Positions 10,101 to 35,660 of a stretch of 64,000 bases of DNA are shown in pieces. Both the position numbers and the translations under genes were made by a program. Each line of letters starts with the position of its first letter. Within the stretch, counting starts at the first letter, position 1. The stretch comes from a virus. The notes beneath the pieces were generated by a model that saw only the letters and a program-made list of their open reading frames with translations, did not search any database and was not told the DNA's origin. The DNA lies in the IMG/VR virus record IMGVR_UViG_3300031873_000003, positions 29,791 through 93,790 of that record. The stretch is one strand, 5' to 3'.

Positions 10101-10229
10101 TCGGTCTCTCCTTCGGCATCCGAGAGTCCATCAAGGTCGCCCTCAATATCTCCTTCTATGTCTCCGTCTATTGAGGGCGCTATGCTTTTGCAAAATTTTC
10201 ATTACTACTATCAAAACATAGGGGCTTGA
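7122..10229 (+). CDS. beta-helix (pectin-lyase-like) domain protein with a ~700-aa SPSx repeat tract
   Basis: Asn/Cys-ladder N-terminal domain ending DIDGTTRP..WDIGADEY, followed by SPS[LVIAE] repeats. Confidence 0.8.
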   Translation: MATEVTHIVDPGEGAGHDYHSLSLWEAGEVGDLTGVRDEIAVAKCRATDGDADTTAVVLDGWITSPTQYIKIWTDPAESHRHDGKWNTSKYRLTVSGAYTIQNSENYTKIDGIQFSGNTGAIYRGLAIGALSNCILNGLNTNNLSGVLQESGGAVTCWNVVVFNLGTGASGFISYTNGSNFRNCTAFNCDNVGIENGYADAVATNCVALTCGSCFDGGIVGNYNCSSDTTAPGANSLKSKSAANNFVDIGAGTEDLHLKLGADCIDTGTDLSAYFTTDIDGTTRPTGANTWDIGADEYVAGAESLSPSASPSLSPSPSLSPSASLSPSESPSLSPSASLSPSASLSSSLSPSTSPSKSPSKSPSTSPSRSPSKSPSRSPSASPSLSPSASASPSLSPSISPSISPSGSPSLSASISPSESPSLSPSASVSPSVSPSVSPSASPSMSPSVSPSASPSVSPSLSPSASISPSLSPSASPSESPSESPSLSPSASVSPSELPSVSPSISPSGSPSESPSLSPSVSPSESFSESPSESPSLLPSASVSPSLSPSASVSPSESPSLSPSISPSVSPSASPSLSPSASISPSVSPSVSPSESPSLSPSASVSPSVSPSLSPSISPSISPSLSPSVSPSKSPSLSPSASLSPSVSPSVSPSVSPSISPSVSPSLSPSASVSPSISPSLSPSISPSVSPSVSPSISPSISPSESPSFSPSVSPSVSPSVSPSISPSLSPSLSPSVSPSVSPSISPSASPSMSPSLSPSASVSPSMSPSASPSLSPSISPSVSPSVSPSISPSVSPSVSPSISPSLSPSLSPSKSPSLSPSASLSPSLSPSLSPSESPSLLPSASLSPSLSPSASPSVSPSESPSLSPSASVSPSISPSLSASESPSVSPSFSPSESPSLSPSVSLSISPSISPSVSPSKSPSVSPSESPSLSPSISPSLSPSASVSPSISPSLSLSESPSVSYSLSPSASPSLSPSISPSESASLSPSISPSVSPSASESPSRSPSISPSMSPSIEGAMLLQNFHYYYQNIGA
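8031..10170 (+). repeat. coding tandem repeat, SPSx tetrapeptide (12-nt period, codon-degenerate)
   Basis: Direct translation; Ser encoded by both TCN and AGY. Confidence 0.95.
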
Positions 10230-11983: not shown

Positions 11984-12988
11984 ATGTCAAACATAACCAC
12001 GAGCGTGATTATACCGAGCAGAAATTGCAAGTATGTGTCCCGCACAATACAGGACGTTTTTGAAAAGGCAGGGGGACCGATAGAAGTGATTTGCCTCTTA
12101 GATGGGTACTATCCCGATCCTCCAATCAAGGATCATCCTAATTTAACGATAGTCCATAAACCAGAAGTCACGGGAATGAGAAAGAGCATTAACATGGGGG
12201 TTCAGCTTGCAAAAGGAAAATATATTTGCAAAATGGATGATCATACGATGGTCGGAGAGAACTTTGATAGGATTATCAGTGAGAGTATAGATGACGACTG
12301 GCTTGCTGTCCCGAGTCGATATTCACTCGATCCAGAGAAGTGGGAGAAGGGCAGAGGACCAACTGAATACCTATTCGTTACCTACCCATACAATCACGAC
12401 AATTTGTATGGAAATGGCCTCCACGGAAAGAAGTGGATCGGGGAAGATGGTATCGGAAAGAATATGGGCAAGACTGAGTTCTATTGGATGGAGGATCATC
12501 GAAAGGATAAACGGATTGACGATTTACAAACGTTCCAGGGCTCGTTTTGGGCAATGTCGAAAGAACACTATTTCAGGATCGGAATGTTGGACGAAAAACA
12601 TTGTGATTTGATGGAGAATGAACCGCAGGAGCTGGGGTTTAAAACTTTTTTGTCGGGGGGACGTTGTGTTTTGATAAAAGACGCCTGGCACGCCCATATG
12701 CACAAAAACGAGCGTGAGTTAGACAACAGGGGACGAAGCTGGAAACTTAGTTGGCAGGCCATGAGAGACACGGGAAGGTTTCAAACTTTTGTGTGGATGA
12801 ATAATCGCTGGGCCGGGGCAACTAAAAAGATTGAAGATTTTGTGGAGCATTTCTGGCCTATCCCTAGTTGGCCGTCGGACTGGATTTCGCAAAGGGATCA
12901 GTGGAACAAGGAACACCCAGAGATGAACACAAACTTCCGGATTTTTGACCCCGATGGGCATGACGGATTACCCCTTCGGGAAACATAG
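11984..12988 (+). CDS. glycosyltransferase family 2
   Basis: SVIIPSRN, EVICLLDG, AKGKYICKMDDH. Confidence 0.85.
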   Translation: MSNITTSVIIPSRNCKYVSRTIQDVFEKAGGPIEVICLLDGYYPDPPIKDHPNLTIVHKPEVTGMRKSINMGVQLAKGKYICKMDDHTMVGENFDRIISESIDDDWLAVPSRYSLDPEKWEKGRGPTEYLFVTYPYNHDNLYGNGLHGKKWIGEDGIGKNMGKTEFYWMEDHRKDKRIDDLQTFQGSFWAMSKEHYFRIGMLDEKHCDLMENEPQELGFKTFLSGGRCVLIKDAWHAHMHKNERELDNRGRSWKLSWQAMRDTGRFQTFVWMNNRWAGATKKIEDFVEHFWPIPSWPSDWISQRDQWNKEHPEMNTNFRIFDPDGHDGLPLRET

Positions 12989-13008: not shown

Positions 13009-13770
13009 ATGCGTGAACTCATTACCCTAACGGGAAGCCGAGGTTTTCTTGGAACCGCCATCAGGAAGGACATCAAATATCCTTATAGTGAGGTCGATTA
13101 CCTTATCGGAAAAGACCATAAGGACGTCATCGGAAGAAAGGGAACGTTGATCTTTATGTCGTCATGGGTGGACCAGGGAGAGTCGATGGTGAACCCCGCA
13201 AAGTATATTCAAAATAATTTAGTTTACCTTGCGATGATACTGACCAACAATGCGTTCGATCAAGTGATCTTCCCCTCTTCCTGTATGGTCTACGACAAGG
13301 ACGGGAAATTGGAACCAAGCTCAGTGTATGGCTTTACGAAACTCGCTGGAGAGAAGTTGATTAAAATTTACTCTAAGAATTACTGGATATTGAGGATCGG
13401 GAACCCCTACGGGCCGAACGACCATCGATCGGTCTTTCGTGAACTGGCAAGATGCAAAAAAGAAGGGGATACGTTTATAATCTCTGGCGGAAAGATCGTT
13501 AGGGATTATTTTCCTGTTGCTCATATCGCAAAGCTTGTGAACAGGATATTGGACGGAGGTATCGAGCCAGGTATTTATAATGTTGGGTCTGGAAACCACG
13601 TCGTGACATCGGAATATTTAAAAATGTTTTGTGTGAACCATGCGATTAAGCATGTGGTGGTTGATGGGACGGGGACGCTTGCTTCCGGGTACGCAGCCAA
13701 GGATCACATGTTGGCCTGTAGGCAAAAGAAAATATCCGACAGAGAATGGAAGGATTACTATTTGGGATAG
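13009..13770 (+). CDS. NAD-dependent epimerase/dehydratase
   Basis: TGSRGFLG, SS..VY, YGFTK, NPYGP. Confidence 0.85.
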   Translation: MRELITLTGSRGFLGTAIRKDIKYPYSEVDYLIGKDHKDVIGRKGTLIFMSSWVDQGESMVNPAKYIQNNLVYLAMILTNNAFDQVIFPSSCMVYDKDGKLEPSSVYGFTKLAGEKLIKIYSKNYWILRIGNPYGPNDHRSVFRELARCKKEGDTFIISGGKIVRDYFPVAHIAKLVNRILDGGIEPGIYNVGSGNHVVTSEYLKMFCVNHAIKHVVVDGTGTLASGYAAKDHMLACRQKKISDREWKDYYLG

Positions 13771-13780
13771 GGGTATCATC

Positions 13781-14440
13781 GTGAGTGACATAACTCTTCT
13801 GTACTATACAGCAAACAGAATACCTGATCGCTTTGCGGTGAACGTCAGAAACCACTTGATTATAACGGCACAAGGGAAGCCTATTATCAGTATCTCCCAA
13901 CAACCTATCAATCTTGGAGAAAACATATGTGTTGGTGATATAGGATATACCGTTCCAAATGTCTATGCACAGATTTTGGTGGGAGCCAAGATGGCAAAAA
14001 CACAGTACGTTGCTTGTTGTGAAGACGATACCCTGTATGTCCCGGAGCATTTTGACTATATTCCGCCAGACGATACGTTTGGATACAATAAGAACAGGTG
14101 GAATCTTACCGAAAGCCATTTCTATTTACAGTCTCGAAGGTCAAACATGTGTGTATGCATAGTTCCAACCGAATCGATGATAAGGACGCTTGAGGAAAGG
14201 GTAACTAAGTTTGGTTCTGGAGGGCCTCCTCACCTTGGAGAACCTGGGAGACGTGAGAGAACGATGGGAATCAATACAGTAAAGGCTTGTAAGTTCAACA
14301 CTATTGATCCTGTGTTACAAATTAATCATGCCATATCCCTTGGTGGAATTCGGAGGCGGGCGAATTACAACGTAATCCAGGCAGAACATCCTGCGTGGGG
14401 GAAAGCCTCCGCTTTATGGGAAAAAATGGTGAATGGATAG
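13781..14440 (+). CDS. glycosyltransferase (GT-A fold)
   Basis: GTG start; YVACCEDDTLY acidic motif; paralogous to the C-terminal domain of 23113..25587. Confidence 0.7.
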   Translation: MSDITLLYYTANRIPDRFAVNVRNHLIITAQGKPIISISQQPINLGENICVGDIGYTVPNVYAQILVGAKMAKTQYVACCEDDTLYVPEHFDYIPPDDTFGYNKNRWNLTESHFYLQSRRSNMCVCIVPTESMIRTLEERVTKFGSGGPPHLGEPGRRERTMGINTVKACKFNTIDPVLQINHAISLGGIRRRANYNVIQAEHPAWGKASALWEKMVNG

Positions 14441-14723: not shown

Positions 14724-16032
14724 GGGGATTCCCAGAAAGGTTAAACAGAGTGCTTAACATTTCCAAGTTGGTTCACGTTTCTACGAGGTCTGCCTTTTCG
14801 AGCCGAAGCCCGAACTGGTCTTGTAACCTCTCCACGCGCTTTTACGGAGTGTCCCTCCGCATCACGGATATTTATCGCTGCGTTATCATCGCGGTCGTGG
14901 TGAGTCTTACACTCGGGGCAATACCACTCACGAATGCTCAAGGGAAGCGATTCCAGTATGTACCCGCAGACATTACAGCGTTTACTACTTGGGAAAAATG
15001 GATCGATAATCCGAAGATCCTTTTCGTACCAGTCGCATTTGTAGGTAAGCATTCCCCGAAACATGCCAAAGGCGGCATCGCCGATAACTCTTGCCAGTTT
15101 GTGATTTCTGACCATACCTCGAACATTCAGATCTTCGATTTGAATTACGTCAAAGCGACGAACCAAATCGGTGGTCACTTTGTAGAGGTGGTCTTTCCGC
15201 ATGTTAGCAATATGCTCTTGAAGACGAGCAACCTTGAGAATAGCCCGGCGCCGTCTACCGCTCCCCTTCTTCTTCTTGGCAAGCTTCCGCTGCAGCTTCT
15301 TCAGCTTCAGGAGATTCGTCCCAAGAGCCCTGGGGTTTGGGATTTGTTCGCCATTGGACAAGGTAGCCAGACGAGAAACGCCGAGGTCGATGCCGATTTT
15401 CAAGCCAGTCTTCGGAAGGGGCAGCCTCACTTCATCGAGGCAGAGAGTAACAAAGTATTTCCCACTTGGCAACTTGGTTATTGTCACCGTGGTGGGGATA
15501 CTCTGGAAACCTCTGCTCCAGTGAATGTCAAGTCTGCCAATGCCGGAGATGCTCAAATTGCGATTGGCAGCATCCCACTTGAACGCGCTTCGGGTGTACT
15601 CAGCGGTCTGCTTGCCTCGCTTCTTCTTGAATGTCGGATACTTCGCAGTCTTGTTCCAGAAGTTGATGTAAGCAGTCTGGAGATGCCGAAGCGCTTGCTG
15701 GGTCGGGACGCAAGAGATCTCGTTGAGCCATTCGGTTTCCGGTTGCCTTTTCAGTTCGGTGAGCATAGCGGAAGATTCGTTGTACCCAATGCTTCGGTTC
15801 TCTTTGAACCAAGCATCAGTACGGATGCGCAGAAAACGATTGAAGACGAACCGACAGGAACCGAAAATCCGAGAAAGGCTCTCGGCCTGTTGTTTTGTCG
15901 GGTAAACCCGGTATGTGTGTCTCATCTTCACAATACTATTGTATCTTGTGTAAATTCAGAAGTCAAACAAAAATAAAAGATGGCATTTCCTCCCCCGGCT
16001 AAAGTCGGGGGTATCCATGCCGAAAAATTCTC
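14698..16032 (-). mobile_element. tnpB-only IS605/IS1341-type element inserted after TTCAT
   Basis: Right end ...GGGGGAGGATGTCAA; left-end hairpin at about 15990-16012; the empty site reconstitutes ...GTGAAGG|ATGAAC. Confidence 0.8.
14741..15931 (-). CDS. tnpB: TnpB RNA-guided nuclease
   Basis: N-terminal YRVYPT motif; RuvC residues GIDLG, IEDL, DRDDNAA; CxxC..CxxC zinc finger; TTGACT-17-TACAAT promoter upstream. Confidence 0.95.
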   Translation of the reverse strand: MKMRHTYRVYPTKQQAESLSRIFGSCRFVFNRFLRIRTDAWFKENRSIGYNESSAMLTELKRQPETEWLNEISCVPTQQALRHLQTAYINFWNKTAKYPTFKKKRGKQTAEYTRSAFKWDAANRNLSISGIGRLDIHWSRGFQSIPTTVTITKLPSGKYFVTLCLDEVRLPLPKTGLKIGIDLGVSRLATLSNGEQIPNPRALGTNLLKLKKLQRKLAKKKKGSGRRRRAILKVARLQEHIANMRKDHLYKVTTDLVRRFDVIQIEDLNVRGMVRNHKLARVIGDAAFGMFRGMLTYKCDWYEKDLRIIDPFFPSSKRCNVCGYILESLPLSIREWYCPECKTHHDRDDNAAINIRDAEGHSVKARGEVTRPVRASARKGRPRRNVNQLGNVKHSV

Positions 16033-19284: not shown

Positions 19285-19970
19285 GCAGAATCGGAGCATT
19301 ACTTACGTCTATAGATGAACCACAACTCCAAAGATGCCTTACGTCTATAGGTTCCCAGGCAGTTCCATTTTCAGATTTTGTGCATATCAATAACGTAGTT
19401 CCTGCGTCTGCGGCACTTAACTTAGGGATTAGCAAGGTAAGTTCGGAATGGTTCATGTATATTGGGGGAGACTTCATTCTTCACCAAAACGCAGTAGAGG
19501 TTGCGCATGGATATATCGACCATGAGGGAAATGATCAAATATGTGGATATTGCTTCGGAATTTACGATACGTTCCTGCAATGCACCACCGGATATTGCAA
19601 TGTGTACCGTACCATAGTTTTTAAGCTTGAATTGGCTCGTGACACCCTGTATGACGATAGGCAACTTTCAGGGAGATTAAGAAGGAAGGGGTGGAAGTTT
19701 AGGAAACCCAAGGAAGTTCTTGCTACGCATTTTGATGATCCAAGCGAGTTTCAGGTATTCTGTAGATTTTTCTTTCATGCTAATAAGTTTAACGATGACA
19801 ACTCTTACGTCAGGGATAGAATGAACGAGTTACTGAAGGATACGGGAAATCCGTTGTATCAGGTTGGACTTGATGCCTTAAACTTTGCAAAGCTTAAACA
19901 TAATTATCCCGGAAGCCCTAATCTGGACTTTAATAAAAAGATGTTTGAGGAATTTAAAAGGAGGGATTAA
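19281..19970 (+). CDS. glycosyltransferase family 2-like
   Basis: RCLTSI..Q, ALNLGI, WFMYIGGDFIL. Confidence 0.7.
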   Translation: MSRIGALLTSIDEPQLQRCLTSIGSQAVPFSDFVHINNVVPASAALNLGISKVSSEWFMYIGGDFILHQNAVEVAHGYIDHEGNDQICGYCFGIYDTFLQCTTGYCNVYRTIVFKLELARDTLYDDRQLSGRLRRKGWKFRKPKEVLATHFDDPSEFQVFCRFFFHANKFNDDNSYVRDRMNELLKDTGNPLYQVGLDALNFAKLKHNYPGSPNLDFNKKMFEEFKRRD

Positions 19971-19977
19971 AGAGAAG

Positions 19978-20739
19978 TTGGCAGAGAAGAAAGTCTCAAT
20001 TGTCGTTGCAGTCTTGAACTCGCATATTATCGTTCTTAGGCAAATACGAGCGTGGAAATCTATGCATTTACCCGATGGCGTTGAGATCATTCTTGTTGAT
20101 GATGGAAGCAATCCACCTATTTTACATACAGCAGAGAGTACTGGACTTAGGAATTTAATTGTACTTGCAACTCACGACAAGAGGCCCTGGACGCAAGGAT
20201 TGGCGAGAAATATGGGGGCAGCAAAAGCACAAGGTGAATATCTATTTTTTACCGACATAGATCATATCATTACAAGAGAGGCAATAGATGATGTGCTTAA
20301 GTTTGATGGTAACAAGATGGTGTTTCCCAGGTACTTCGGGATACTTGATAGGAAGGGAAATATTATCAATGACGAAAAGTCACTGCTGGACTTTGGGCTT
20401 GATCCTGCAAGAGTGAGGACACATCGGGGACATCTATGCGGAGGGTTTCACGGAAACACCTACGCTATTCGGAAAAGTATTTTTGAAAAGATTGGTGGGT
20501 ACATACCTCGTTACTGCGAGTCGGGCTTCCATGTGGGAGGCAAACATCAATCGGAAGAGAGTAAGTTTAACAGTATGTATAGGAATTTTAAAGAGGAAGG
20601 ATTTATTCCAACCGAGACCATAGGTTCCAAGATTTATCATTATCCCGTAAGTAAATTCAGAACGGACGGAGACAATAATCCGTTTGGACTGTTCCATGAG
20701 CTGAGCTTGGAACAAGTTCCACAACCCAGGAAGTTATGA
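19978..20739 (+). CDS. glycosyltransferase family 2 (GT7 C-terminal-like); start uncertain
   Basis: EIILVDDGS, ARNMGA, LFFTDIDH, FEKIGGY. Confidence 0.85.
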   Translation: MAEKKVSIVVAVLNSHIIVLRQIRAWKSMHLPDGVEIILVDDGSNPPILHTAESTGLRNLIVLATHDKRPWTQGLARNMGAAKAQGEYLFFTDIDHIITREAIDDVLKFDGNKMVFPRYFGILDRKGNIINDEKSLLDFGLDPARVRTHRGHLCGGFHGNTYAIRKSIFEKIGGYIPRYCESGFHVGGKHQSEESKFNSMYRNFKEEGFIPTETIGSKIYHYPVSKFRTDGDNNPFGLFHELSLEQVPQPRKL

Positions 20740-21608
20740 AACTTCTACTTATTCGTTCGGCCAGTTGCAGTGGTCACTCCTACATGGTTCAGTGTTTGCA
20801 CTACATGACGGGAATCGAACCGACCGTAGTTCATATTGATAGTTGCCACACGATTGACTATGGCGAGCACGACTACCTTATTTATAATGCATTTTCTAAC
20901 GAGAGTTACGCACCGAAGTTTGACACCAAGATTATATATCCAGCCGATGAGCGATTCCATGCGTTCAAGGGCAAAAAGATATTGTTTGATACACACGACG
21001 AAGGAAATAGGGATGGGTTCGAGAGGATGAAGGGTTACGGCTACCCAAGGCTTAAGATAAATCCTGGATATGATTTCATGACTAAGTTCAACGTAGTGGC
21101 TGCAATACCATTTACGGCATACCATAGATTTTTCTTGAAGTCTCCTGTGCCCAAAACAATTCCCCTGCTCTATTGTGTCAATTGTAAGGGGATTACGTTT
21201 CCCCCCAACATAAGACCTACGGTATTCGAGAGACTAAAGCCGTTTAATCCATACACTACCAGAACATCCATGAACTATTATGCGGATACGCTAAAGACCG
21301 CAAAGATATCGGTAACTGTGCCGGGATATGGAACTGGATGTAAGTCCCATGTTGAGGCGTTAGCGGCAAGTACACTTCTTTTTTCGTATGATTCTATTAG
21401 CATGGTAAAGACCTTACCATTCGCAGACCTTGTTGATGGAAAGCATTACATTTCATTTAACCTTGATAATCTTGAGGAGAAATTATCCTTATGCTTATCT
21501 GACGATAAACTTGTGGAAGAGGTTAGCAGGGAGGGTCATTTGTGCTTTAGGTTGGGTTACGATCCCCGTCGGACGGGGGAGGAGATAGCAAGATGGTTCA
21601 GCTCATAG
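20736..21608 (+). CDS. GT-B-like glycosyltransferase (Glyco_trans_1_2-like)
   Basis: AKISVTVPGYG..HVEALA..DGKHYI C-terminal pattern. Confidence 0.65.
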   Translation: MKLLLIRSASCSGHSYMVQCLHYMTGIEPTVVHIDSCHTIDYGEHDYLIYNAFSNESYAPKFDTKIIYPADERFHAFKGKKILFDTHDEGNRDGFERMKGYGYPRLKINPGYDFMTKFNVVAAIPFTAYHRFFLKSPVPKTIPLLYCVNCKGITFPPNIRPTVFERLKPFNPYTTRTSMNYYADTLKTAKISVTVPGYGTGCKSHVEALAASTLLFSYDSISMVKTLPFADLVDGKHYISFNLDNLEEKLSLCLSDDKLVEEVSREGHLCFRLGYDPRRTGEEIARWFSS

Positions 21609-22354
21609 ACTGCTTTATGTTCTTTAATGAGATAGACCTGCTTGAAATAAGATTGAATTCTCTTGCTCCTTACGTCAATCGTTTCGTGCTGTGCGAGATG
21701 CCAATAACTCATAGCGGTAAACCAAAGCCTCTTTTTTTCCAGGACAATAAGGATAGGTTTAAGGATTTCAATATCACTTATCTGGTGGCGCCCCCCAGGG
21801 AAGGTAGTTCATGGAAATTGGAGCATTACCAGAGGGATTATTTGTTAAATGGAATTACAGACGTAGACCCAGATGATATTATGTTGATCTCAGACATGGA
21901 CGAGATTCCTGACATCAGCAAGTATCACCTCGGAGATGAGGGAGTCTTCAGGCAAAGCATGTATTACTACTACTTTAATGTCTATGTATCCGGAAGTTGG
22001 AAGGGGACGATTGCGAAAAAACGTAAAAGCTTTGCAAACTTTAATGACATAAGAAATCTTAGAAACAGAATGCCAACCATTGTTAAGCAGGGGGGATGGC
22101 ATTTTTCCACTATGGGAACCGCAGAGGACATTAAGTATAAGATTGAATCTTTCGCCCACATTGAACTGGATAAACCTGAATTCAAGTCCAGGATTGAAGA
22201 AAATAGAAAGAACTTGGTTGATCCTTATAATCGTGGTGCGCCAAATTGGGGCGAGAGAGGACTAAAATTGATAGTGCAGATGCCCAGTGGGCCGCAATGG
22301 TTATTAGAGAATAGGGAAAAATACGAACATTTATTTTGGAAGGGCGATGCATAG
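21593..22354 (+). CDS. GT17-like N-acetylglucosaminyltransferase
   Basis: DCFMFFNEIDLLEIRL, THSGKPKPL, SDMDEIP, GGWHFS. Confidence 0.85.
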   Translation: MVQLIDCFMFFNEIDLLEIRLNSLAPYVNRFVLCEMPITHSGKPKPLFFQDNKDRFKDFNITYLVAPPREGSSWKLEHYQRDYLLNGITDVDPDDIMLISDMDEIPDISKYHLGDEGVFRQSMYYYYFNVYVSGSWKGTIAKKRKSFANFNDIRNLRNRMPTIVKQGGWHFSTMGTAEDIKYKIESFAHIELDKPEFKSRIEENRKNLVDPYNRGAPNWGERGLKLIVQMPSGPQWLLENREKYEHLFWKGDA

Positions 22355-22820
22355 CAATAGCATTAAACTTATGCGTTGGTTTAGGGATAAGTATTTACAG
22401 GAGTTGAAAGGATGTACCGTGCTGGATATTGGGTCTAAGGTAGGCAGAACTTCAAGGAATGCTACGTACGGAGGTAGGGTATTTTTTCCCCCAGACTATA
22501 ATTATATTGGAATGGATGTTGTTCCGGGAAGAAACGTGACAATAGTGGGATACGATAATCTTCCAGTGTGTGAGGTGGTTGTCAGTGGGCAGGTTATGGA
22601 GCATGTGCAGAGGCCGTGGGAGTGGCTGAAGAATTTGGTGCAATATTACACAAAGTTTATCTGTGTTATTGCTCCGAATACTTGCCCGGAGCATAAGTTT
22701 CCTTTCGATACATATAGATATTTCACAGATGGAATGCGTGATTTATTTGAGTACGCAGGTATTCGAGAGATTGAAATCAGAATGAGTGGAAATGATACGA
22801 TAGGAGTTGGGGGGAAATAA
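22347..22820 (+). CDS. class I SAM-dependent methyltransferase
   Basis: VLDIGS, SGQVMEHV, HKFPFDTYRY. Confidence 0.8.
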   Translation: MHSNSIKLMRWFRDKYLQELKGCTVLDIGSKVGRTSRNATYGGRVFFPPDYNYIGMDVVPGRNVTIVGYDNLPVCEVVVSGQVMEHVQRPWEWLKNLVQYYTKFICVIAPNTCPEHKFPFDTYRYFTDGMRDLFEYAGIREIEIRMSGNDTIGVGGK

Positions 22821-22840
22821 TGCCAAACTTTACGGCAAGC

Positions 22841-23062
22841 TTAATTGCCCTTGGACAATACAACCCAGTCCGTTCCCGACATGTCTCCAGTAGAGATGAC
22901 CAGGGGGTGAAGACTTTGGTCTTTGGGCGTGAAAATGACAAGTTTTTCCTGGGACATGACCACATAGGTTCCGTCGTCGGGCCATTCAAGGCGTCTCAGT
23001 TTTTTCCCTTCGAGAAGACTCTCGGTACAATCGGGGAAATCCATGGTGTTTTCTTCGTTCAT
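22841..23062 (-). CDS. DUF2829 / Tad2-like small protein
   Basis: GGAGG RBS; MDF....LLEGKKLRRLEW....ISTGDMSGTDWVV matches the DUF2829 pattern. Confidence 0.65.
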   Translation of the reverse strand: MNEENTMDFPDCTESLLEGKKLRRLEWPDDGTYVVMSQEKLVIFTPKDQSLHPLVISTGDMSGTDWVVLSKGN

Positions 23063-23089
23063 TGTTGGCTGACCTCCTTTTTGGGCAAT

Positions 23090-23119
23090 ATTATACGCAA
23101 AGGCGTTGGTGAATGTCAA
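23090..23119 (-). promoter_or_regulatory. consensus sigma70 promoter for the antisense DUF2829-like gene
   Basis: TTGACA-N18-TATAAT on the - strand. Confidence 0.75.
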
Positions 23120-25587
23120 GAAAAATCGACTTAGCAAGGGGGTATATGTCTCAAAAATATAGTTTAAGCGTGTGCATTCCCGCAAGAAACGAACAATTTC
23201 TTTCCCTTACGGTTGATGATCTCTTGAAGAATATCCGAGGGAATACTGAAATCATCGTGATATGTGACGGGAACTATCCTGACCCTCCCATTAAGGATGA
23301 CCCAAGGGTAACGCTGATCTATCATAGCCAGTCTATTGGACAGAGAGCGGCATGTAATGAGGCGGCGAGGTATTCAAGGGCGAAATATCTGGCGAAGTGT
23401 GATAGCCACTGTTCCTTTGATGAAGGGTTTGATGTGAAGTTACTTGAAGATATGCAGGATGATTGGACGATGGTTCCGATCATGAAAAATTTATGGATTT
23501 ATGATTGGGTGTGCGAATCAGGCCACCGTAGGTACCAAGGTCCTTCTGGCCCCTGTACGGAATGTGGTAAACCAACTGTAAGAGATTTGAAGTGGATCGG
23601 GAAAAATAATCCACAGAGTACAGTATACTGCTTTGACCCCGAACCGCATTTCCAGTACGCAGTAGACTTTAAGAAACGGGATTGGTATCAAAAGTCTCTT
23701 AAAGAAACAGGGTTGACCGAGACAATGAGTTTACAGGGGTCTTTTTTCATGTTAACCCGACAGAAGTATTTTGAACTCAATATGAATGACGAGGAGTTCG
23801 AGAACTGGGGATCGCAAGGTTTAGAAGTGGCAATAAAAACATGGACTTCTGGGGGAAAGGTTATCTGTTCTCATAAGACATGGTATTCTCACTGCTTTCA
23901 CACGCAAGGGGGGGATTTCGGGTTTTCATGGCCTTGTTCTGGTAGACAGGTTGCCCGAACAAAGAGAAGGGCGAAACAAGTTTTCTTCAAACAAAAATGG
24001 GGACCACAGCAAAGATATCCCCTGAGCTGGCTTGTGGAACGATTTTGGCCTACTTCTTATTGGAAAGATGAGGATTTAAGGATTCTCAAGGCGACGGAGG
24101 CGACATTCTTTGACTTTGACCTTAAACTTTTCAGGGTTCCTGGCGTAGTTGGTTCTGTTCCAAGCCCGGTGACAGATCATACATCTTCTGTGTCCTCTCT
24201 TGTCGGGAGGAGGGAGCAAGTGCCCGTTTCTGCAATGAGTCAACCTGGTCTTCCAGGGGATAATCTTATCTCCGGGACCACGGTTCTCTCTGACGTTGGC
24301 ACGTCGCCTACGTTGACCGTCGGCAGCACAGATAGTACAGATACGAAAAGGAGGACTGTTGGGAAAGTGTCTCGTGGGGGGCAAGAGGTGTCCTCTGGGG
24401 CAGTGAGTTTTGGCACGGTTGACGGAAGAAACAGCATTGGAGGGACGGAGATTATCAATCTGCAAAGCCAATCTGAGATGGAAAGGACTACAACAAGCCC
24501 TATTATTACAGACAACATGATCAACAACGGGAATGCCAGTGGCGTAACCCATAGGGACGGGTCCGATAAGCCAGGCGAAAGTCAATCTGTGCATTCTGAA
24601 GGTGTGGTTGTGTCCGATAGAGTTGGCGAGACGTTTGAAGTTGCCAAGCCCATATCCATCCTTGTCGAGACTCCCCAGCCAGTTCCAGCACCCAGTGATA
24701 GGGTCAATCTCAATCTTGGAAAAAATTCTGTCGATGTCTCTTGCGGAAAGGGTGGGGATTATGAGAAAATTGGAATTAGACATGAATCCTCCCATAGTAA
24801 GGATTTGTGTTTAGGATTGGAACGGTGCGACGAACATCGTTCCATTCCGAATACTATACCACAAGCCGATAAATTACGCAAGTGTATAATATTTTACAGT
24901 GACAATGAATTAGATGAAACGATCTTCAAGGCAGTCCAGAAACAACTCCTTCGATCCCTCAATGGCAACGAACTCATTTCTGTCACTCTCAAGCCAATAG
25001 ACTTCGGCAAAAACATCGTCCTCCCCCTAAAACGTAGCCACCTTTCTATGGCACGTCAACAGCTTGCAGGGTTGGAGGCAAGTACAGCAGACATCATATT
25101 TTTCGCAGAGCACGATATTTTATATCCAAAAGAGCATTTTGATTTTACTCCCCCACGTAAAGATGTTTTTTATTACAATTTGAACTGGTACAAGGTTCGC
25201 ACCCAGGACGGCCAATCTCTTCACTTTACGGCCAAGCAAGTAAGTGGCCTATGCGCTTACCGAGACATCCTTCTCGACTACTACCGGAAGAGGGTTTCCA
25301 TGATCGAGAGTGGAGAGATTGGAGGGAGAAGGCATTTTGAGCCAGGAAGCAATCATTACAGGGATGCGTATGATAAGCTTACCAACCTTGGGTCTGATAC
25401 CTGGCGATCTTCCGTCCCTTACGTGGACATTAGGCACAAAGGAACTGTGACCAGGAATATCTTCGATCCCTCTGGTTATCGCAACACGATGAAGGATTGG
25501 ACAATGGTGGACGAGATACCTGGAGGGTGGGGAAAAACAAAAGGAAGATTTTGGGAGTTCTTGCAGGAGGCGGTCGATGCCATATAA
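23113..25587 (+). CDS. two-domain glycosyltransferase with a ~250-aa linker formed by an antisense HNH gene
   Basis: N-domain SVCIPARNE..KCDSH; C-domain IFFAEHDILY; the linker coincides with 24076..24783(-). Confidence 0.8.
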   Translation: MSRKIDLARGYMSQKYSLSVCIPARNEQFLSLTVDDLLKNIRGNTEIIVICDGNYPDPPIKDDPRVTLIYHSQSIGQRAACNEAARYSRAKYLAKCDSHCSFDEGFDVKLLEDMQDDWTMVPIMKNLWIYDWVCESGHRRYQGPSGPCTECGKPTVRDLKWIGKNNPQSTVYCFDPEPHFQYAVDFKKRDWYQKSLKETGLTETMSLQGSFFMLTRQKYFELNMNDEEFENWGSQGLEVAIKTWTSGGKVICSHKTWYSHCFHTQGGDFGFSWPCSGRQVARTKRRAKQVFFKQKWGPQQRYPLSWLVERFWPTSYWKDEDLRILKATEATFFDFDLKLFRVPGVVGSVPSPVTDHTSSVSSLVGRREQVPVSAMSQPGLPGDNLISGTTVLSDVGTSPTLTVGSTDSTDTKRRTVGKVSRGGQEVSSGAVSFGTVDGRNSIGGTEIINLQSQSEMERTTTSPIITDNMINNGNASGVTHRDGSDKPGESQSVHSEGVVVSDRVGETFEVAKPISILVETPQPVPAPSDRVNLNLGKNSVDVSCGKGGDYEKIGIRHESSHSKDLCLGLERCDEHRSIPNTIPQADKLRKCIIFYSDNELDETIFKAVQKQLLRSLNGNELISVTLKPIDFGKNIVLPLKRSHLSMARQQLAGLEASTADIIFFAEHDILYPKEHFDFTPPRKDVFYYNLNWYKVRTQDGQSLHFTAKQVSGLCAYRDILLDYYRKRVSMIESGEIGGRRHFEPGSNHYRDAYDKLTNLGSDTWRSSVPYVDIRHKGTVTRNIFDPSGYRNTMKDWTMVDEIPGGWGKTKGRFWEFLQEAVDAI
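24076..24783 (-). CDS. HNH homing endonuclease nested antisense in the glycosyltransferase
   Basis: GGAGG RBS; CWNWLG..DGYG..HR..DHVVCNNRACCSPFHL; two THCxxGH repeats. Confidence 0.85.
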   Translation of the reverse strand: MSNSNFLIIPTLSARDIDRIFSKIEIDPITGCWNWLGSLDKDGYGLGNFKRLANSIGHNHTFRMHRLTFAWLIGPVPMGYATGIPVVDHVVCNNRACCSPFHLRLALQIDNLRPSNAVSSVNRAKTHCPRGHLLPPTRHFPNSPPFRICTICAADGQRRRRANVRENRGPGDKIIPWKTRLTHCRNGHLLPPPDKRGHRRCMICHRAWNRTNYARNPEKFKVKVKECRLRRLENP

Positions 25588-25819
25588 AAAATACCCACCC
25601 GTAGATGAAGCGACGATGGACAGAAAAAGATTCGAGGGACATCATTCCGTGTGCCAGACCCTAAGAGATATTTATCATCTTACGGATGATCCGGAGATTA
25701 AGCTTAAGTGCAGGTTGGCGGTGGCAATGACGAAAGCTATGCACGAGCGCCTAAAATGGTACAAGGCAAAGAACCTTGCCGAAGCAGAAATAAGGGAGAA
25801 AAAGGATGCCTCAACTTAA
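25577..25819 (+). CDS. small helical protein, paralog of 14433..14723
   Basis: GGAGG RBS; shared DPExKL motif. Confidence 0.65.
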   Translation: MPYKKYPPVDEATMDRKRFEGHHSVCQTLRDIYHLTDDPEIKLKCRLAVAMTKAMHERLKWYKAKNLAEAEIREKKDAST

Positions 25820-27664: not shown

Positions 27665-30600
27665 ATGCCTGAATCTGCTTCGATGAGTCCGAGCGAATCG
27701 CCGAGCGAATCACCTTCGTTGAGTCCATCGGCCTCTGCATCACCATCGATTTCGCCGTCGCTCAGCCCGAGCGCAAGCGTCAGTCCATCGATTTCGCCTT
27801 CGAGATCACCCTCCGGGAGTCCTTCGGCGTCACCATCGTTAAGTCCGAGCGCAAGCATTTCGCCTTCGACGTCACCATCCAAAAGTCCGTCGGAGTCGCC
27901 ATCGAGAAGTCCATCCAAAAGTCCTTCTGGAAGTCCTTCAATGTCTCCAAGCGAAAGTCCCTCAAAATCGCCTTCGGCGTCACCATCCTTAAGTCCGTCA
28001 ACGTCACCATCGTTAAGCCCCAGCGCAAGCCTTTCTCCGTCCCTGAGTCCTTCGGCCAGCTTGTCGCCGAGTGCAAGCCCAAGCGTATCACCCAGCATGT
28101 CACCCTCTGCATCGCCATCGTTAAGTCCAAGTCCCGTGATAGATATTATTAAGGCTGGATGTTCGATAAGCAGCATAAGCTCAAATAATGGACGAAAACT
28201 TGTCCGAGATAGCACAGGAAGATTGCACGTTGTTTATCATAGGGTTGCAACTGTCTGGAATATTTATCATTCGTATTCGGATGACAGCGGACAAACATGG
28301 ACGGAAGAAGCGATTACAAGTGATGCATCGTACAACCAGTGGAGTCCATCCATAGCCATCGATAGTAGCAATCACTTGCATGTGGTATGGCATGGAACAT
28401 CTGTCTTATCCACCACTATTGACCAAATCAGATATTCTAAATACGAAGGTTCGTGGAGTACGCCGGTTGACTTAACCGGGGAAGTTTACACGCAGGCACT
28501 TCCTTCGATAGCCATTGATAGCGGTGATCATATACATGTGGTTTGGGAGGGAATGTCCTCCGTGTCCCCAAGTTACACTCAGGTTAGGTATTCTCAGTAC
28601 GAATCTTCCTGGAGTGCGCCTACCAACCTAACCAGCGGAAACCTCTGGAGGTGGAATCCCTCCGTAGCCATTGATAGTGGGAATAATTTGCATATTGTTT
28701 GGGGGGAAGGCCCCGATAGTCTTACCAGCCAAATAATGTATTCTAAGGGTGCGCCCTGGAGCCCCGTCCAGTTAAGCGATGGCAGTTATATGCAGGCTGA
28801 CGCCTCTATTGCCATCGATAGCAGTAATCATGTGCACGTTGTCTGGGAGGGTAGGTCTCCCGCTCTCCCGGACTATAATCAAATCAGGTATGCTAAATAT
28901 GAAGCTTCGTGGAGCACGGTTGTCGATTTAACTGGGACGAAGACCGTGGGTTATGATCAGCAAAGCCCTTCCATAGCGATCGATACCGGTGACCGGTTAC
29001 ATGTAGTGTGGTATGGCGCATCGGTGGTTTCTCCAAGCGCTTATCAAATCAGGCATACCAAATATGACGGTTCATGGAGTACGGACACTGACTTAACTAC
29101 TGATAGTGTGTCTCAATATTATCCTTCAACTCTATGGGCAAACAATATTTATTCGGTCAATGCACAGGGTTATTGTTTCGCCTACATGGATGACACAACC
29201 CTAACGTTTTATGCGAGCGACGAAATATCTTTCTATGGAATGGCTTCCCCCAGCTTATCGCCAAGCCTGAGCCCAAGCAAATCGCCAAGTCAATCTCCAT
29301 CACTCTCTTCTTCGGGCAGCCCAAGCTTAAGTCCGAGCCCGTCGCCATCGCTTTCACCCTCGGCCTCGGAAAGCCCTTCGGCGTCACCATCGTTGAGTCC
29401 AAGCGCAAGCCTATCTCCTTCGGCCTCTGTCAGTCCAAGCACATCACCCTCGCTATCTCCATCGGCCTCTATTAGCCCAAGCGAGTCACCGTCGAGAAGT
29501 CCCTCTAAATCACCTTCGGCGTCACCATCTATAAGCCCTTCGGCGTCACCATCGTTAAGTCCGAGCGCAAGCCTATCGCCTTCGGCCTCTGTCAGTCCAA
29601 GCGCATCTCCTTCGCTATCTGCAAGTTTGAGTCCATCGCCTTCGGCCTCTGTCAGTCCAAGCGCATCTCCTTCGGTGAGCCCAAGCCCAAGTGCGGGAAC
29701 CCTTATCTGTGATTTAGCCTTTGCTCTTAGCGTTCCGGCAATAGAGGTTAGCGGAAAAATCGCTGGCCCAGGGTTGATAGGACCATCGCTTGAATTACCG
29801 GCGATTGTGGTTTCAGGCAATATCGTTACCGGCGGGGCGTTTTCGGCAATCCTTGAGCTTGCACCTCATGCATCAGGAACTATTCGTGTTGGAGGGTTGT
29901 TTTCGGGGACAATCAATGTTCCCATTGAGGTATCAGGAACGATTTATAGTGGTGGCGGATTGGTTGCCTCGTTAATCCTTCCTGCGATACATGTTGATGG
30001 CCTCATTGCCAAAAACACGACTGGGTTTGAAATCACTGTTCCCGTGATAACCCTTTCGGGCACGATCATTACCGGAAGAGTGGTTAGTGGCGGAGTAAGC
30101 GTTCCTGCGATTAAGGTTCTGGCAACCATCGGCCATTATAATTCGCTGACATTTGACCTCGATTTGCCTGAGATAACTACCAACCTTTTTATTATGGGAG
30201 CGCAAAAGATCACGGTTCAAGGCGCTCCTCTTCGGAAGGCGTTCGTTGTTAATTTAGCTCATTTCGGGGTGACAGAATACTCTGGATACTCTTTCAATTC
30301 ATTTGCTAACTACCATTTTAGTAAAACCTACATAGGCGCCAGCGAAGAAGGTATTTTTGTGCTGGACGGGGATGACGACAATGGCGTTAGGATCAATGCT
30401 ACAATTCAACCAGGGAATGAAGACCTTTGGTCACAGACGATAAAGCGACTTAGGGAGGGTTTTGTAACGATGAGGGGTGGGCCAATTTCCATCGAACTGA
30501 TTCTTGACGAAGGAAGGTTAGACCCGGTGACGAGGGATTTAGAGTATGTCGAAAGTACGATTCATGAAGAGCGATTTAAAATATCACGGGGGTTGAAGAA

Positions 30601-30700
30601 TAGATTTTTTTCTGTGATTTTTAAAAACTTAGGTGGGAATGACTTTAGCCTTGAGTCTTTCCGATTTTTTTGCGATGAGATTCAAAGGAGAAAACGTTGA
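27665..30700 (+). CDS. virion protein with two SPSx tracts, a repeat beta-propeller (PSIAIDS..HVVW) and a tail-like C-terminus
   Basis: SPSx at about 27674-28135 and 29244-29693; five or six PSIAID repeats between them. Confidence 0.8.
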   Translation: MPESASMSPSESPSESPSLSPSASASPSISPSLSPSASVSPSISPSRSPSGSPSASPSLSPSASISPSTSPSKSPSESPSRSPSKSPSGSPSMSPSESPSKSPSASPSLSPSTSPSLSPSASLSPSLSPSASLSPSASPSVSPSMSPSASPSLSPSPVIDIIKAGCSISSISSNNGRKLVRDSTGRLHVVYHRVATVWNIYHSYSDDSGQTWTEEAITSDASYNQWSPSIAIDSSNHLHVVWHGTSVLSTTIDQIRYSKYEGSWSTPVDLTGEVYTQALPSIAIDSGDHIHVVWEGMSSVSPSYTQVRYSQYESSWSAPTNLTSGNLWRWNPSVAIDSGNNLHIVWGEGPDSLTSQIMYSKGAPWSPVQLSDGSYMQADASIAIDSSNHVHVVWEGRSPALPDYNQIRYAKYEASWSTVVDLTGTKTVGYDQQSPSIAIDTGDRLHVVWYGASVVSPSAYQIRHTKYDGSWSTDTDLTTDSVSQYYPSTLWANNIYSVNAQGYCFAYMDDTTLTFYASDEISFYGMASPSLSPSLSPSKSPSQSPSLSSSGSPSLSPSPSPSLSPSASESPSASPSLSPSASLSPSASVSPSTSPSLSPSASISPSESPSRSPSKSPSASPSISPSASPSLSPSASLSPSASVSPSASPSLSASLSPSPSASVSPSASPSVSPSPSAGTLICDLAFALSVPAIEVSGKIAGPGLIGPSLELPAIVVSGNIVTGGAFSAILELAPHASGTIRVGGLFSGTINVPIEVSGTIYSGGGLVASLILPAIHVDGLIAKNTTGFEITVPVITLSGTIITGRVVSGGVSVPAIKVLATIGHYNSLTFDLDLPEITTNLFIMGAQKITVQGAPLRKAFVVNLAHFGVTEYSGYSFNSFANYHFSKTYIGASEEGIFVLDGDDDNGVRINATIQPGNEDLWSQTIKRLREGFVTMRGGPISIELILDEGRLDPVTRDLEYVESTIHEERFKISRGLKNRFFSVIFKNLGGNDFSLESFRFFCDEIQRRKR

Positions 30701-33452: not shown

Positions 33453-35660
33453 TTGGCCGACATCATAAAGTATGGAACTGGAATTCTATATGGTACGGGT
33501 CATCTATATGGAGAATATATTCCCTCGGCCTCGATATCTCCGAGCCTTTCGCCCTCTAAGGGTCCTTCGGTTTCTCCATCCCTAAGTCCTTCGGCTTCTA
33601 TAAGTCCTTCGTTATCTCCATCAGTCTCACCTTCAATCAGTCCTTCGGTCTCACCTTCGGTCTCACCCTCTTTAAGCCCATCTGTTAGTCCAAGTTTATC
33701 ACCGTCGGCCAGTCCATCCTTGAGTCCATCATTGAGTCCTTCTGCTTCCTTGAGTCCCAGTCTAAGTCCGTCTAAATCTCCTTCTGTATCACCCTCGGTA
33801 TCACCTTCACTATCACCCTCTCTTAGTCCGAGTGAATCTCCGAGTCTCTCTCCTTCGGCCTCATTATCTCCATCATTGAGTCCGTCTGTTTCACCGTCCG
33901 TTAGCCCATCGATTTCACCGAGCCTATCACCGAGTTTATCTCCGTCGGAAAGTCCGAGTCTTTCACCCTCTGCGAGTTTAAGCCCATCTGAAAGTCCGTC
34001 ACTTAGTCCAAGTGTATCGCCTTCTTTTTCGCCATCGATGAGTCCGTCTTTATCACCTTCGGAGAGCCCTTCGTTAAGTCCAAGTGCTTCGCTCTCTCCG
34101 AGCCTGTCACCAAGCAAATCTCCAAGTCTGTCACCATCGGCTTCGCTCTCACCCAGCTTGTCACCGAGCGAAAGTCCTTCTGCCAGTCCTTCTGTAGGCA
34201 GTTTTTCCTTATCTCCAAGTGCATCGCCTTCACTTTCTCCCTCTGCGAGCCTGAGTCCATCCATTTCTCCAAGTGAATCCTTGAGCCTTAGTCCGAGTGC
34301 CAGTCCAAGCGTATCGCCTTCGGCATCACCGAGCCTTAGTCCGAGCGAATCTCTATCCATAAGTCCATCTCTTAGTCCTTCAATCTCTCCATCAATCAGC
34401 CCTTCGGTTAGTCCAAGTAAATCGCCTTCGTTAAGCCCATCTGAGAGTCCAAGTGTAAGTCCGAGTCTGTCACCGAGCGTCAGTCCGTCAATATCTCCGA
34501 GTTTATCGCCCTCCCTGAGCCCTTCGGAAAGCCCGAGTGAATCACCTTCAATCAGCCCATCGGCAAGTCTTTCGCCGAGCCTTAGCCCCAGCGGGTCGCC
34601 AAGTCTTTCCCCAAGCGTCTCTATCTCACCGAGTATGTCTCCGAGTGCCTCTCCATCCATTAGTCCTTCAAAGAGTCCCTCGGAGTCACCCTCGATGTCT
34701 GCTTCGGTAAGCCCGTCTTTATCCCCATCAGTCTCCGAATCTCCATCGGTTTCTCCATCGGTATCACCTTCGGCATCACCCAGCCTTAGTCCAAGTGAGT
34801 TAGCGTCCTTATCTCCATCGGAGAGTCCCAGTAAATCACCAAGCTTGTCTCCGAGTATTTCACCCTCGGGATCACCGAGCTTAAGTGTGAGCGAATCACC
34901 TTCAGAGAGTCCAAGCCTATCAGCCTCTCTGTCTCCAAGTGAATCTCCCTCGGAATCTAAGAGTCTGAGCGCATCAGAAAGTCCGTCAGAATCACCAAGC
35001 GTTAGTCCATCGGTTAGTCCATCTTTATCGCCGTCAATGTCGCCTTCCAAGAGTGAAAGCGAATCACCAAGCCTTTCGCCTTCGGAAAGTCCTTCGAGGT
35101 CGCCCTCGTTAAGTCCCTCGGCGAGTCCGTCGATATCTCCATCACTTTCCCTTAGTCTTTCGCCTTCGGAAAGTCCATCGGTTTCTCCAAGCGTTAGTCC
35201 CTCAGCGAGTCCGTCGATGTCTCCATCGATATCTCCAAGCGTGAGTCCCTCGTTCAGTCCTTCGGCCAGCTTATCTCCATCCGAAGAACCGATCGAGCTT
35301 CCTCCTCTTTTTTCGCCAGAATTATACTATAAGAAATTAAAGATGGTTCGTTCTTCAATAACGCCCGATGGTGATTTTTTATATAAAACAATGAAAATGG
35401 TTGTTCCTCCCCTGCTTAGCCTAGAGGGTGGGTTTGGGTATCAAAACCTCAAAACGGTTATTCCACCTTCGTTAAGTCCGGAAGGTGATTTTTCATATAA
35501 GACAATGAAAATGGTTGTTCCTCCCCTGCTTAGCCCAGAGGGTGGGTTTGGGTATCACAAGACAAGGATGATCAGCAAGACAGGATTGCCGGAAGGTGGT
35601 TTTATGTATAAGAAATTGAAGATGATAATTCCTCCATCACCAAGTGCAGAGGCAGGTTAG
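33453..35660 (+). CDS. SPSx-repeat protein with a short YG-rich N-terminus and C-terminal PEGxFxYK repeats
   Basis: TTG start; SPSx tract at about 33522-35282. Confidence 0.75.

Follow-up and report, generated by a model that had tools for sequence, protein, structure and literature searches.

To our knowledge, homing endonucleases are thought to persist in essential or conserved genes only by way of introns, inteins, or gene splitting. In the case of mobE in nrdA of Aeromonas phage Aeh1, reportedly described by Friedrich et al. in 2007, the host gene is said to be split into pieces that are translated separately and reassemble. HNH insertions of another kind, the ShiLan domain or "hidden HNH," are present in mycobacteriophage DNA methylases (Arsenault, Gosselin & Gogarten 2025, PMC11855218; Gosselin et al. 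2023, PMC9957025). Here we analyzed a 64,000-nucleotide (nt) stretch of viral DNA (positions 29,791 to 93,790 of IMG/VR record IMGVR_UViG_3300031873_000003; referred to here as the window, in whose numbering coordinates are given). On its minus strand, a predicted HNH endonuclease gene lies wholly inside a plus-strand open reading frame (ORF) for a two-domain glycosyltransferase (GT), which runs unbroken across it. On the basis of sequences and structure models, we assign a probability of roughly 0.75 to the reading that an HNH homing cassette was inserted backwards into the GT linker, that the GT is read straight through it, and that the HNH protein is made from an antisense transcript.

The window locus and the ShiLan insertions have in common an HNH gene within a phage ORF, a host frame without a stop, the lack of an intron or intein signature, a patchy homing-like distribution, and a host-frame peptide that is predicted to be a loose loop in the methylases and disordered in the GT; a leaderless start has been proposed for ShiLan and is also expected for some of the cassettes described below. 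They differ in geometry, the ShiLan HNH being read from the same strand in the third frame, whereas the HNH gene in the window is on the opposite strand, is codon aligned with its host, and has a presumed promoter of its own. The hosts also differ (i.e., a methylase and a GT), and the GT family offers two insertion sites, double occupancy, and a stop avoidance that could be quantified. The words "antisense," "reverse," "complement," and "opposite strand" do not occur in PMC11855218, and full-text literature searches found no paper on the antisense nested form. New here are the GT host family, the two sites of unequal stringency, the double occupancy, and the anatomy of the promoters.

With the other known systems, the resemblance is partial. 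The mobE/nrdA case likewise involves an endonuclease gene in a conserved gene without an intron or intein, with host function reportedly surviving there, but its host is broken in two, whereas the GT frame is continuous. Inteins and group I introns also place an endonuclease inside a conserved gene at a fixed site; they self-splice, whereas the window locus has no ribozyme or Hint signature and carries its endonuclease on the other strand. Free-standing phage HNHs (PHROG 826; I-HmuI type) share the CWNW N-terminal module, the HNH core, and the Cys4 ribbon. These genes are intergenic and contain ordinary numbers of TTA, CTA, and TCA codons, whereas those nested within an open coding frame have none.

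The nested HNH gene and its host

The GT ORF (23113 to 25587, plus strand; 824 amino acids [aa]) was delimited using the ORF list and insert-free relatives aligning on both sides of the cassette, and it contains no stop codon. Counted from its first ATG, the minus-strand ORF (24076 to 24795; 239 aa) is wholly inside it. We chose the ATG at 24783 as the HNH start because it aligns with the start of relatives (the ATG at 24795 is the alternative), which gives a gene at 24076 to 24783 on the minus strand with 235 aa and a stop. A preliminary description of this DNA, made from the sequence alone, had proposed an antisense HNH gene of this size within an unbroken GT frame, and the present coordinates agree with it on both points. 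The HNH codons are exactly opposite the GT codons. The plus-strand codon CAT at 24793 to 24795, which is the antisense of the first HNH ATG, specifies a His of the GT, and the HNH stop codon TAA corresponds to the plus-strand TTA at 24076 to 24078 (Leu322 of the GT).

The minus-strand product matched PHROG 826 (E value, 8.6e-35) and annotated HNH endonucleases of many phages (tblastn); its match to Pfam HNH_3 was weak (E value, 0.008) and below the cut-off of that family. Every column that is invariant among 24 aligned HNHs is kept in the window HNH, including H89, N111, C92/C97, C128, and C149/C152 (window HNH numbering). The AlphaFold2 (AF2) model of the protein had a mean predicted local distance difference test (pLDDT) score of 76.8, and its top Foldseek match was I-HmuI, at a weak level (E value, 0.023; probability, 0.82). 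Searching the HNH profile against PDB sequences gave no match. By sequence, the product belongs to the HNH (beta-beta-alpha-Me) endonucleases, and nuclease activity is predicted. Compared with its relatives, the window HNH has an extra 8 residues and a duplicated zinc-ribbon module (THC..GH.LP...C..C), the two copies of which are at aa ~126 to 152 and ~186 to 210. Its first half resembles the L170-type cassettes and its C-terminal part the L172/L123b type; the gene looks like the outcome of a duplication or a recombinant.

The N-terminal domain of the host (23113 to 24075, plus strand; aa 1 to 321) is a polypeptide-GalNAc-transferase-like GT-A catalytic domain with a Cys4 ribbon. Pfam GT2 matched aa 19 to 121 (E value, 3.4e-14), and structural comparisons related the domain to GalNAc-T1 (VIA; Z, 26.1; root mean square deviation, 2.5 over 266 residues) and GalNAc-T2 (Foldseek; E value, 1.4e-15). 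The Asp/His metal motif (D97 and H99) is invariant in the GT alignment. The GT2 profile, the predicted fold, and the metal motif place the domain among the GT-A glycosyltransferases, and transferase activity is predicted. The C-terminal domain (24880 to 25584, plus strand; aa 590 to 824) has a GT-A-like nucleotide-sugar-transferase fold with structural matches to IspD (VIA; Z, 12.3) and a P. gingivalis GT (VIA; Z, 11.0), and the two-domain chondroitin polymerase K4CP aligned across both halves of the protein (VIA; Z, 17.6). No Pfam or PHROG family matched the C domain; the earlier statement that the HNH gene lies between two GT domains therefore stands at the level of fold but not, for the C domain, at the level of family. 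The GT query had no tblastn match among cultured-phage records.

In the AF2 model of the 824-aa GT, pLDDT was >90 at aa 13 to 335 and aa 585 to 824. Between them, the insert as read in the GT frame (aa 336 to 584) had a mean pLDDT of about 33 and no secondary structure, and this predicted disorder is consistent with the previous suggestion that the antisense strand serves as an interdomain linker.

A search of 1.84 billion representatives yielded 1,466 GT relatives. As the comparison suggested in the preliminary description made clear, the insert-free GT is a single fused protein of about 550 to 595 aa with both domains (examples of insert-free proteins are L001, 572 aa; L003, 585 aa; and P0001, 633 aa), which places the ~792-nt cassette in the interdomain linker. 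The closest relative of the window GT, P0001, is insert free and is 73% and 62% identical to it over the two domains. Among insert-free relatives, 120 residues are conserved; the window GT retains 104 of them, and its C domain retains 29 of 32. In general, insert-bearing alleles keep 83 to 93% of such residues, and retention does not fall off past the insert. For the occupied L002 and the empty L003, the ratio of nonsynonymous to synonymous substitution rates in the GT was 0.07 overall and 0.04 downstream of the insert.

Recurrence of the nested arrangement

Metagenome contigs and IMG/VR were scanned with HNH alignments, and the survey is accordingly biased to loci found via the HNH. Almost all of the closest relatives of the window HNH are nested antisense and codon aligned in this GT family, where about 22 distinct ones were counted. 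Two insertion sites are used, namely, core position ~185, which is within the N domain, and the interdomain linker. At the N-domain site, none of the 17 distinct cassettes interrupts the GT frame; at the linker site, the frame is open through to the C domain in the window, L170, L171, and L123b. One locus (L123) encodes an 895-aa GT with two nested HNHs, one per site. In another (L002), a 159-aa HNH that is 43% identical to the window HNH is antisense and codon aligned within an unbroken 764-aa GT; its insert is within the N domain and directly precedes the conserved ETMSIQGSCF motif, and the locus is a close relative of the empty L003. At the protein level, a homologous GT-frame insert at either site was detected in 15 more protein-cluster representatives.

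Across loci, HNH identity was uncorrelated with GT identity (r, 0.15), as expected for a mobile element. Sequence comparisons thus provide occupied and empty alleles (L002/L003 and window/P0001), a history decoupled from that of the host, two sites, and double occupancy, all of which argue for mobility of the cassette.

In nine further loci (L127, L130, and L140 and, from IMG/VR, L190, L197, L232, L234, L243, and L244), the HNH is overlain by an antisense ORF, but these were left out of the count of nested cases. Their antisense ORF was barely longer than the HNH and had no GT match, and they were mostly in GC-rich DNA. The HNH of L127 (83 to 760; E value to the window HNH, 2e-25) has no TTA, CTA, or TCA in 226 codons and is covered by a 239-aa antisense ORF without a GT match; this cassette may recently have come out of a coding context.

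Insertions of other types were also observed in this GT family. P0048 contains a Hint/LAGLIDADG intein at core position ~127, and the interdomain linker of P0014, P0024, and P0087 contains GIY-YIG and NUMOD3 endonuclease domains that are sense-strand encoded and in frame. The GIY-YIG/NUMOD3 insertions share the linker site and an unbroken host ORF with the window cassette; they form an internal domain of the host protein, whereas the HNH is on the antisense strand. The GT linker looks like a general landing pad.

Avoidance of stop-giving codons and selection on the two frames

In the aligned antisense register, stops in the host frame arise only from the HNH codons TTA and CTA (Leu) and TCA (Ser). 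None of these is present among the 19 Leu and 11 Ser codons of the window HNH (0/30; 0/31 on the stop-to-stop frame), for which the chance probability is about 6e-5 given phage codon usage and 3e-4 given the usage of the GT flanks. When the nested HNHs were pooled, TTA and CTA accounted for 3 of 238 Leu codons and TCA for 1 of 171 Ser codons, compared with 196 of 461 and 73 of 391, respectively, in the GT sequence that flanks these HNHs. The 4 stop-giving codons observed (versus about 124 expected) were all in two linker-site cases in which the GT frame is broken. Free-standing relatives (n = 41) served as controls; TTA, CTA, and TCA made up 2.4% of their codons, and at least one was present in 38 of them. 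The free-standing genes closest to the nested HNHs (L172, L173, and L175) contain 5, 3, and 2 such codons. Stop avoidance in the plus frame, which had been put forward earlier as something to look for across homologues, was evident in many divergent ones and concerned exactly the three stop-giving HNH codons.

Dynamic programming indicated that synonymous changes alone always suffice to clear the aligned frame, whereas forced stops average 1.9 and 0.6 per gene in the other two antisense frames. That only the aligned frame can be cleared in this manner explains why every nested case uses it.

Pairwise differences among nested HNHs at HNH codon positions 1, 2, and 3 were 0.29, 0.18, and 0.49, and the HNH protein differed at 35% of sites, versus 57% for the GT-frame peptide. 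These values point to purifying selection on the HNH frame. Synonymous sites in the HNH family are close to saturation. Judging from these sequence differences, purifying selection on the HNH frame is of the ordinary kind, and the main constraint on the GT-frame peptide is to remain open.

Boundaries and expression signals of the cassette

The edges of the mobile cassette were placed by aligning the GT frame with insert-free P0001, P0004, and P0007 and with the related L170 cassette. The cassette (24076 to ~24867, minus strand; ~792 nt, i.e., 264 GT codons) consists of the HNH ORF, a 5' untranslated region (UTR), and a promoter. The ribosome-binding site, hairpin, and extended -10-like box named in the preliminary description were all located on the minus strand. 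A Shine-Dalgarno (SD)-like GGGAGGA (24787 to 24793), read from the sequence, ends 3 nt before the ATG at 24783. The 5'-UTR hairpin (24814 to 24848; -27.7 kcal/mol for the 101-nt region; z, -2.2) is at the start of the predicted HNH transcript, and the extended -10-like box TGTGGTATAGT (TG-n-TATAGT; 24853 to 24863), also read from the sequence, is the presumed HNH promoter. In the GT frame, all of these signals consist of sense codons.

The same three elements characterize the other window-type cassettes (L170, L171, and L108). SD equivalents (GGGAGG, GGAGG, or AAGGAA) are present 5 to 7 nt before the start in L108, L170, and L171. A consensus hairpin helix is common to the window, L170, L171, and L108, with both sides changed in 9 of 18 pairs (compensatory). 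The counterpart of the -10 box is TGTGTTATAGT in L170, TGTGTTATGAT in L171, and TGGTATAAT in L108. The HNH would be expressed from its own antisense transcript.

The N-domain-site cassettes (L084, L107, and L111 to L126) have another, conserved layout, in which TTGTCA, a 17-nt spacer, TGcTACACT, and 6 nt precede the ATG. From its sequence, this box is a sigma-70-like promoter that would be expected to give a leaderless mRNA. This promoter-plus-leaderless-ATG layout is shared by the closest free-standing relatives (L172, L173, and L175). A cassette at the N-domain site adds only about 15 nt past the HNH stop and about 39 nt before its start.

In insert-free P0001 (residues 340 to 389), the linker is ~50 aa longer than that of other insert-free GTs, and its start weakly resembles the cassette edge as read in the GT frame of the window (aa 322 to 336); the extra P0001 linker could be the remnant of a decayed cassette or a coincidence. 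We also considered the reading of aa 322 to 336 as an HNH tail that overlaps native GT sequence. Because the free-standing relatives have the same HNH tail, this segment more likely belongs to the cassette.

Proposed mechanism and alternative explanations

We propose that a compact HNH cassette, in which a 235-codon ORF is preceded by an extended -10 promoter, a 5' hairpin, and an SD, has inserted backwards into the interdomain linker of a phage two-domain GT gene. The cassette would sit in the one register in which its codons are exactly opposite the host codons. As TTA, CTA, and TCA all have synonyms, selection could keep the host frame open with the HNH protein unchanged. The GT would be translated straight through as 824 aa, with about 264 antisense-HNH residues forming a disordered tether between the folded domains, and the HNH would be made from its own antisense transcript. 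We infer that the read-through GT is made and active, that the HNH is expressed, and that it homes by cutting insert-free alleles; the labels "homing" and "made harmless" are used here in the same predictive sense.

Several observations weigh against this reading. The SD-to-ATG gap of the window HNH is short (3 nt), and a sigma-70 consensus scan of the minus strand from 23900 to 25100 found no full -35/-10 pair, so that the promoter call rests on the extended -10 box and its conservation. At the linker site, the GT frame is broken in L112 (one TCA) and L126b (three such codons). The L108 locus has a gene for the N domain only, the frame of which crosses the HNH and ends 75 nt beyond it; next come an epimerase gene and a C-domain gene of its own. 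In related phages, genes that encode just one of the two domains are common, and the window itself has an N-domain paralogue alone (11984 to 12988; GT2 E value, 2e-13) and a C-domain paralogue alone (13640 to 14440), so the two GT halves can evidently exist as separate proteins. Moreover, the stop-free state at the linker could be inherited in part from the history of the cassette, and a 264-residue disordered insert could lower the stability of the GT. Given the broken frames of L112 and L126b, the ending of L108, and the separate N- and C-domain genes, a fused polypeptide is probably favored but not obligatory at the linker site. Across the loci compared, continuity of the GT frame is obligatory at the N-domain site (17/17 open) and less strictly needed at the linker. 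L112, L126b, and L108 may approach a mobE-like split state.

These same loci, together with the lone-domain genes, would fit a functional split in the window, in which an N-domain product with a junk tail is complemented by a C domain that is separately initiated or encoded, and the open frame is either a legacy of a cassette purged elsewhere or a means of avoiding polar effects on downstream late genes. We consider such a split unlikely. As the window frame has no stop, translation that begins at 23113 must yield the fused protein. The preliminary description would have taken two findings together as evidence against dual coding, namely, plus-frame stops in homologues and a start of its own for the C-terminal GT. 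The former were found in part, at the linker site, as the stops of L112 and L126b and the frame end of L108; no convincing separate start for the C domain was found in the window, the in-frame candidates being TTG codons at 24805 and 24817 with poor SD context. At the same site, L170, L171, and L123b are open to the C domain. The window HNH has avoided all risky Leu/Ser codons (0/30) despite near-saturated synonymous sites, and the C domain of the window GT is as conserved as in insert-free alleles (29/32 residues).

The discrete recurrent sites and patchy distribution are also reminiscent of introns and inteins, and the GT family includes a true intein (P0048). Removal of the cassette by a novel ribozyme or by a noncanonical intein-like protein reaction, the latter of which would also need an open frame, is nevertheless very improbable. 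The earlier failure to see intron or intein motifs was repeated with dedicated searches, as Rfam had no match at an E value of ≤1 on either strand of 23000 to 25700 (known ribozyme families covered) and Pfam found only GT2 in the plus frame, without a Hint or intein domain. The junction peptides of 17 cassettes show no conserved Cys, Ser, or Thr as the first residue of the insert; the GT-frame "HN" merely reflects the complement of the HNH ATG, and after it come Gly and about 13 more insert residues. The intein reading was ruled out on these junction residues and the missing Hint domain. Stops have been purged although RNA splicing needs no open frame, which argues against splicing at the RNA level. 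In addition, no fold is predicted for the GT-frame peptide, which changes more quickly than the HNH frame does. We give no more credence to the idea that the HNH is a dead relic, unexpressed or inactive, and domesticated as a GT spacer. The atypical features of the window HNH (the 8-residue insertion, the duplicated zinc-ribbon module, and the Pfam HNH_3 score below the cut-off) would be in keeping with a relic; its ORF is intact, with all invariant columns of the 24 aligned HNHs, and its promoter, hairpin, and SD have conserved counterparts in L170, L171, and L108. The HNH frame is under purifying selection family-wide, whereas a pure spacer would soon lose its minus-strand ORF. Finally, the codon-aligned antisense frame is in general the most stop-poor alternative frame, and stop-giving codons are likewise absent from 3 of the 41 free-standing controls, two of these three being GC-rich. 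Chance openness of the host frame is nonetheless negligible as an explanation, given the probability for the window of about 6e-5 to 3e-4, the 4 observed versus about 124 expected codons over about 20 divergent cassettes, and the conserved GT sequence that continues in the same frame on either side of the cassette.

Genomic context of the GT gene

The source assembly is a single contig of 93,790 bases. The long ORFs of the window are almost all on the plus strand, with a phage-like look. Large virion-like ORFs (27665 to 30700, 7122 to 10229, and 33453 to 35660) are rich in Ser/Pro repeats and adjoin a GT gene cluster (19885 to 25587) that includes a GT17-like gene (21593 to 22354), a methyltransferase-like gene (22347 to 22820), and the GalNAc-T-like GT. 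This combination suggests mucin-type O-glycosylation of phage structural proteins, for which the nearby Ser/Pro-rich repeat proteins are candidate acceptors of the GT.

Three other long antisense ORFs (7940 to 9931, 33500 to 35050, and 14741 to 15931, minus strand; 663, 516, and 396 aa) are inside plus-strand genes of the window. The host genes of the first two contain 109 and 84 TTA/CTA/TCA codons, which puts these two ORFs outside the aligned register. The long antisense ORFs are probably by-products of repeat composition and not nested genes.

Implications

The window and roughly 20 relatives would constitute a fourth arrangement for an endonuclease in a conserved gene, whereby the same codons specify one protein on each strand. 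The cost to the element would be synonymous codons only, and the host would gain a floppy loop. We lean toward the more general view that codon-aligned antisense nesting is a third route beside introns and inteins, combining synonymous removal of stops, tolerance of the insert as a disordered loop or linker, and a promoter of its own, often with a leaderless mRNA.

For annotation, the arrangement matters because nested minus-strand genes are routinely discarded and long "linkers" are misread as low-complexity regions. For the evolution of overlapping genes, it provides a clean, replicated example with selection on both strands. Permissive insertion sites in GT-A enzymes and compact promoter-plus-leaderless cassettes may be of use in engineering. 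Within an enzyme of virion glycosylation, the two sites provide a natural contrast, the frame being strict in the catalytic domain and less strict at the linker, and this contrast is a built-in test of the need for translation through the insert. If our reading is correct, such inserts could over time give rise to new interdomain linkers.

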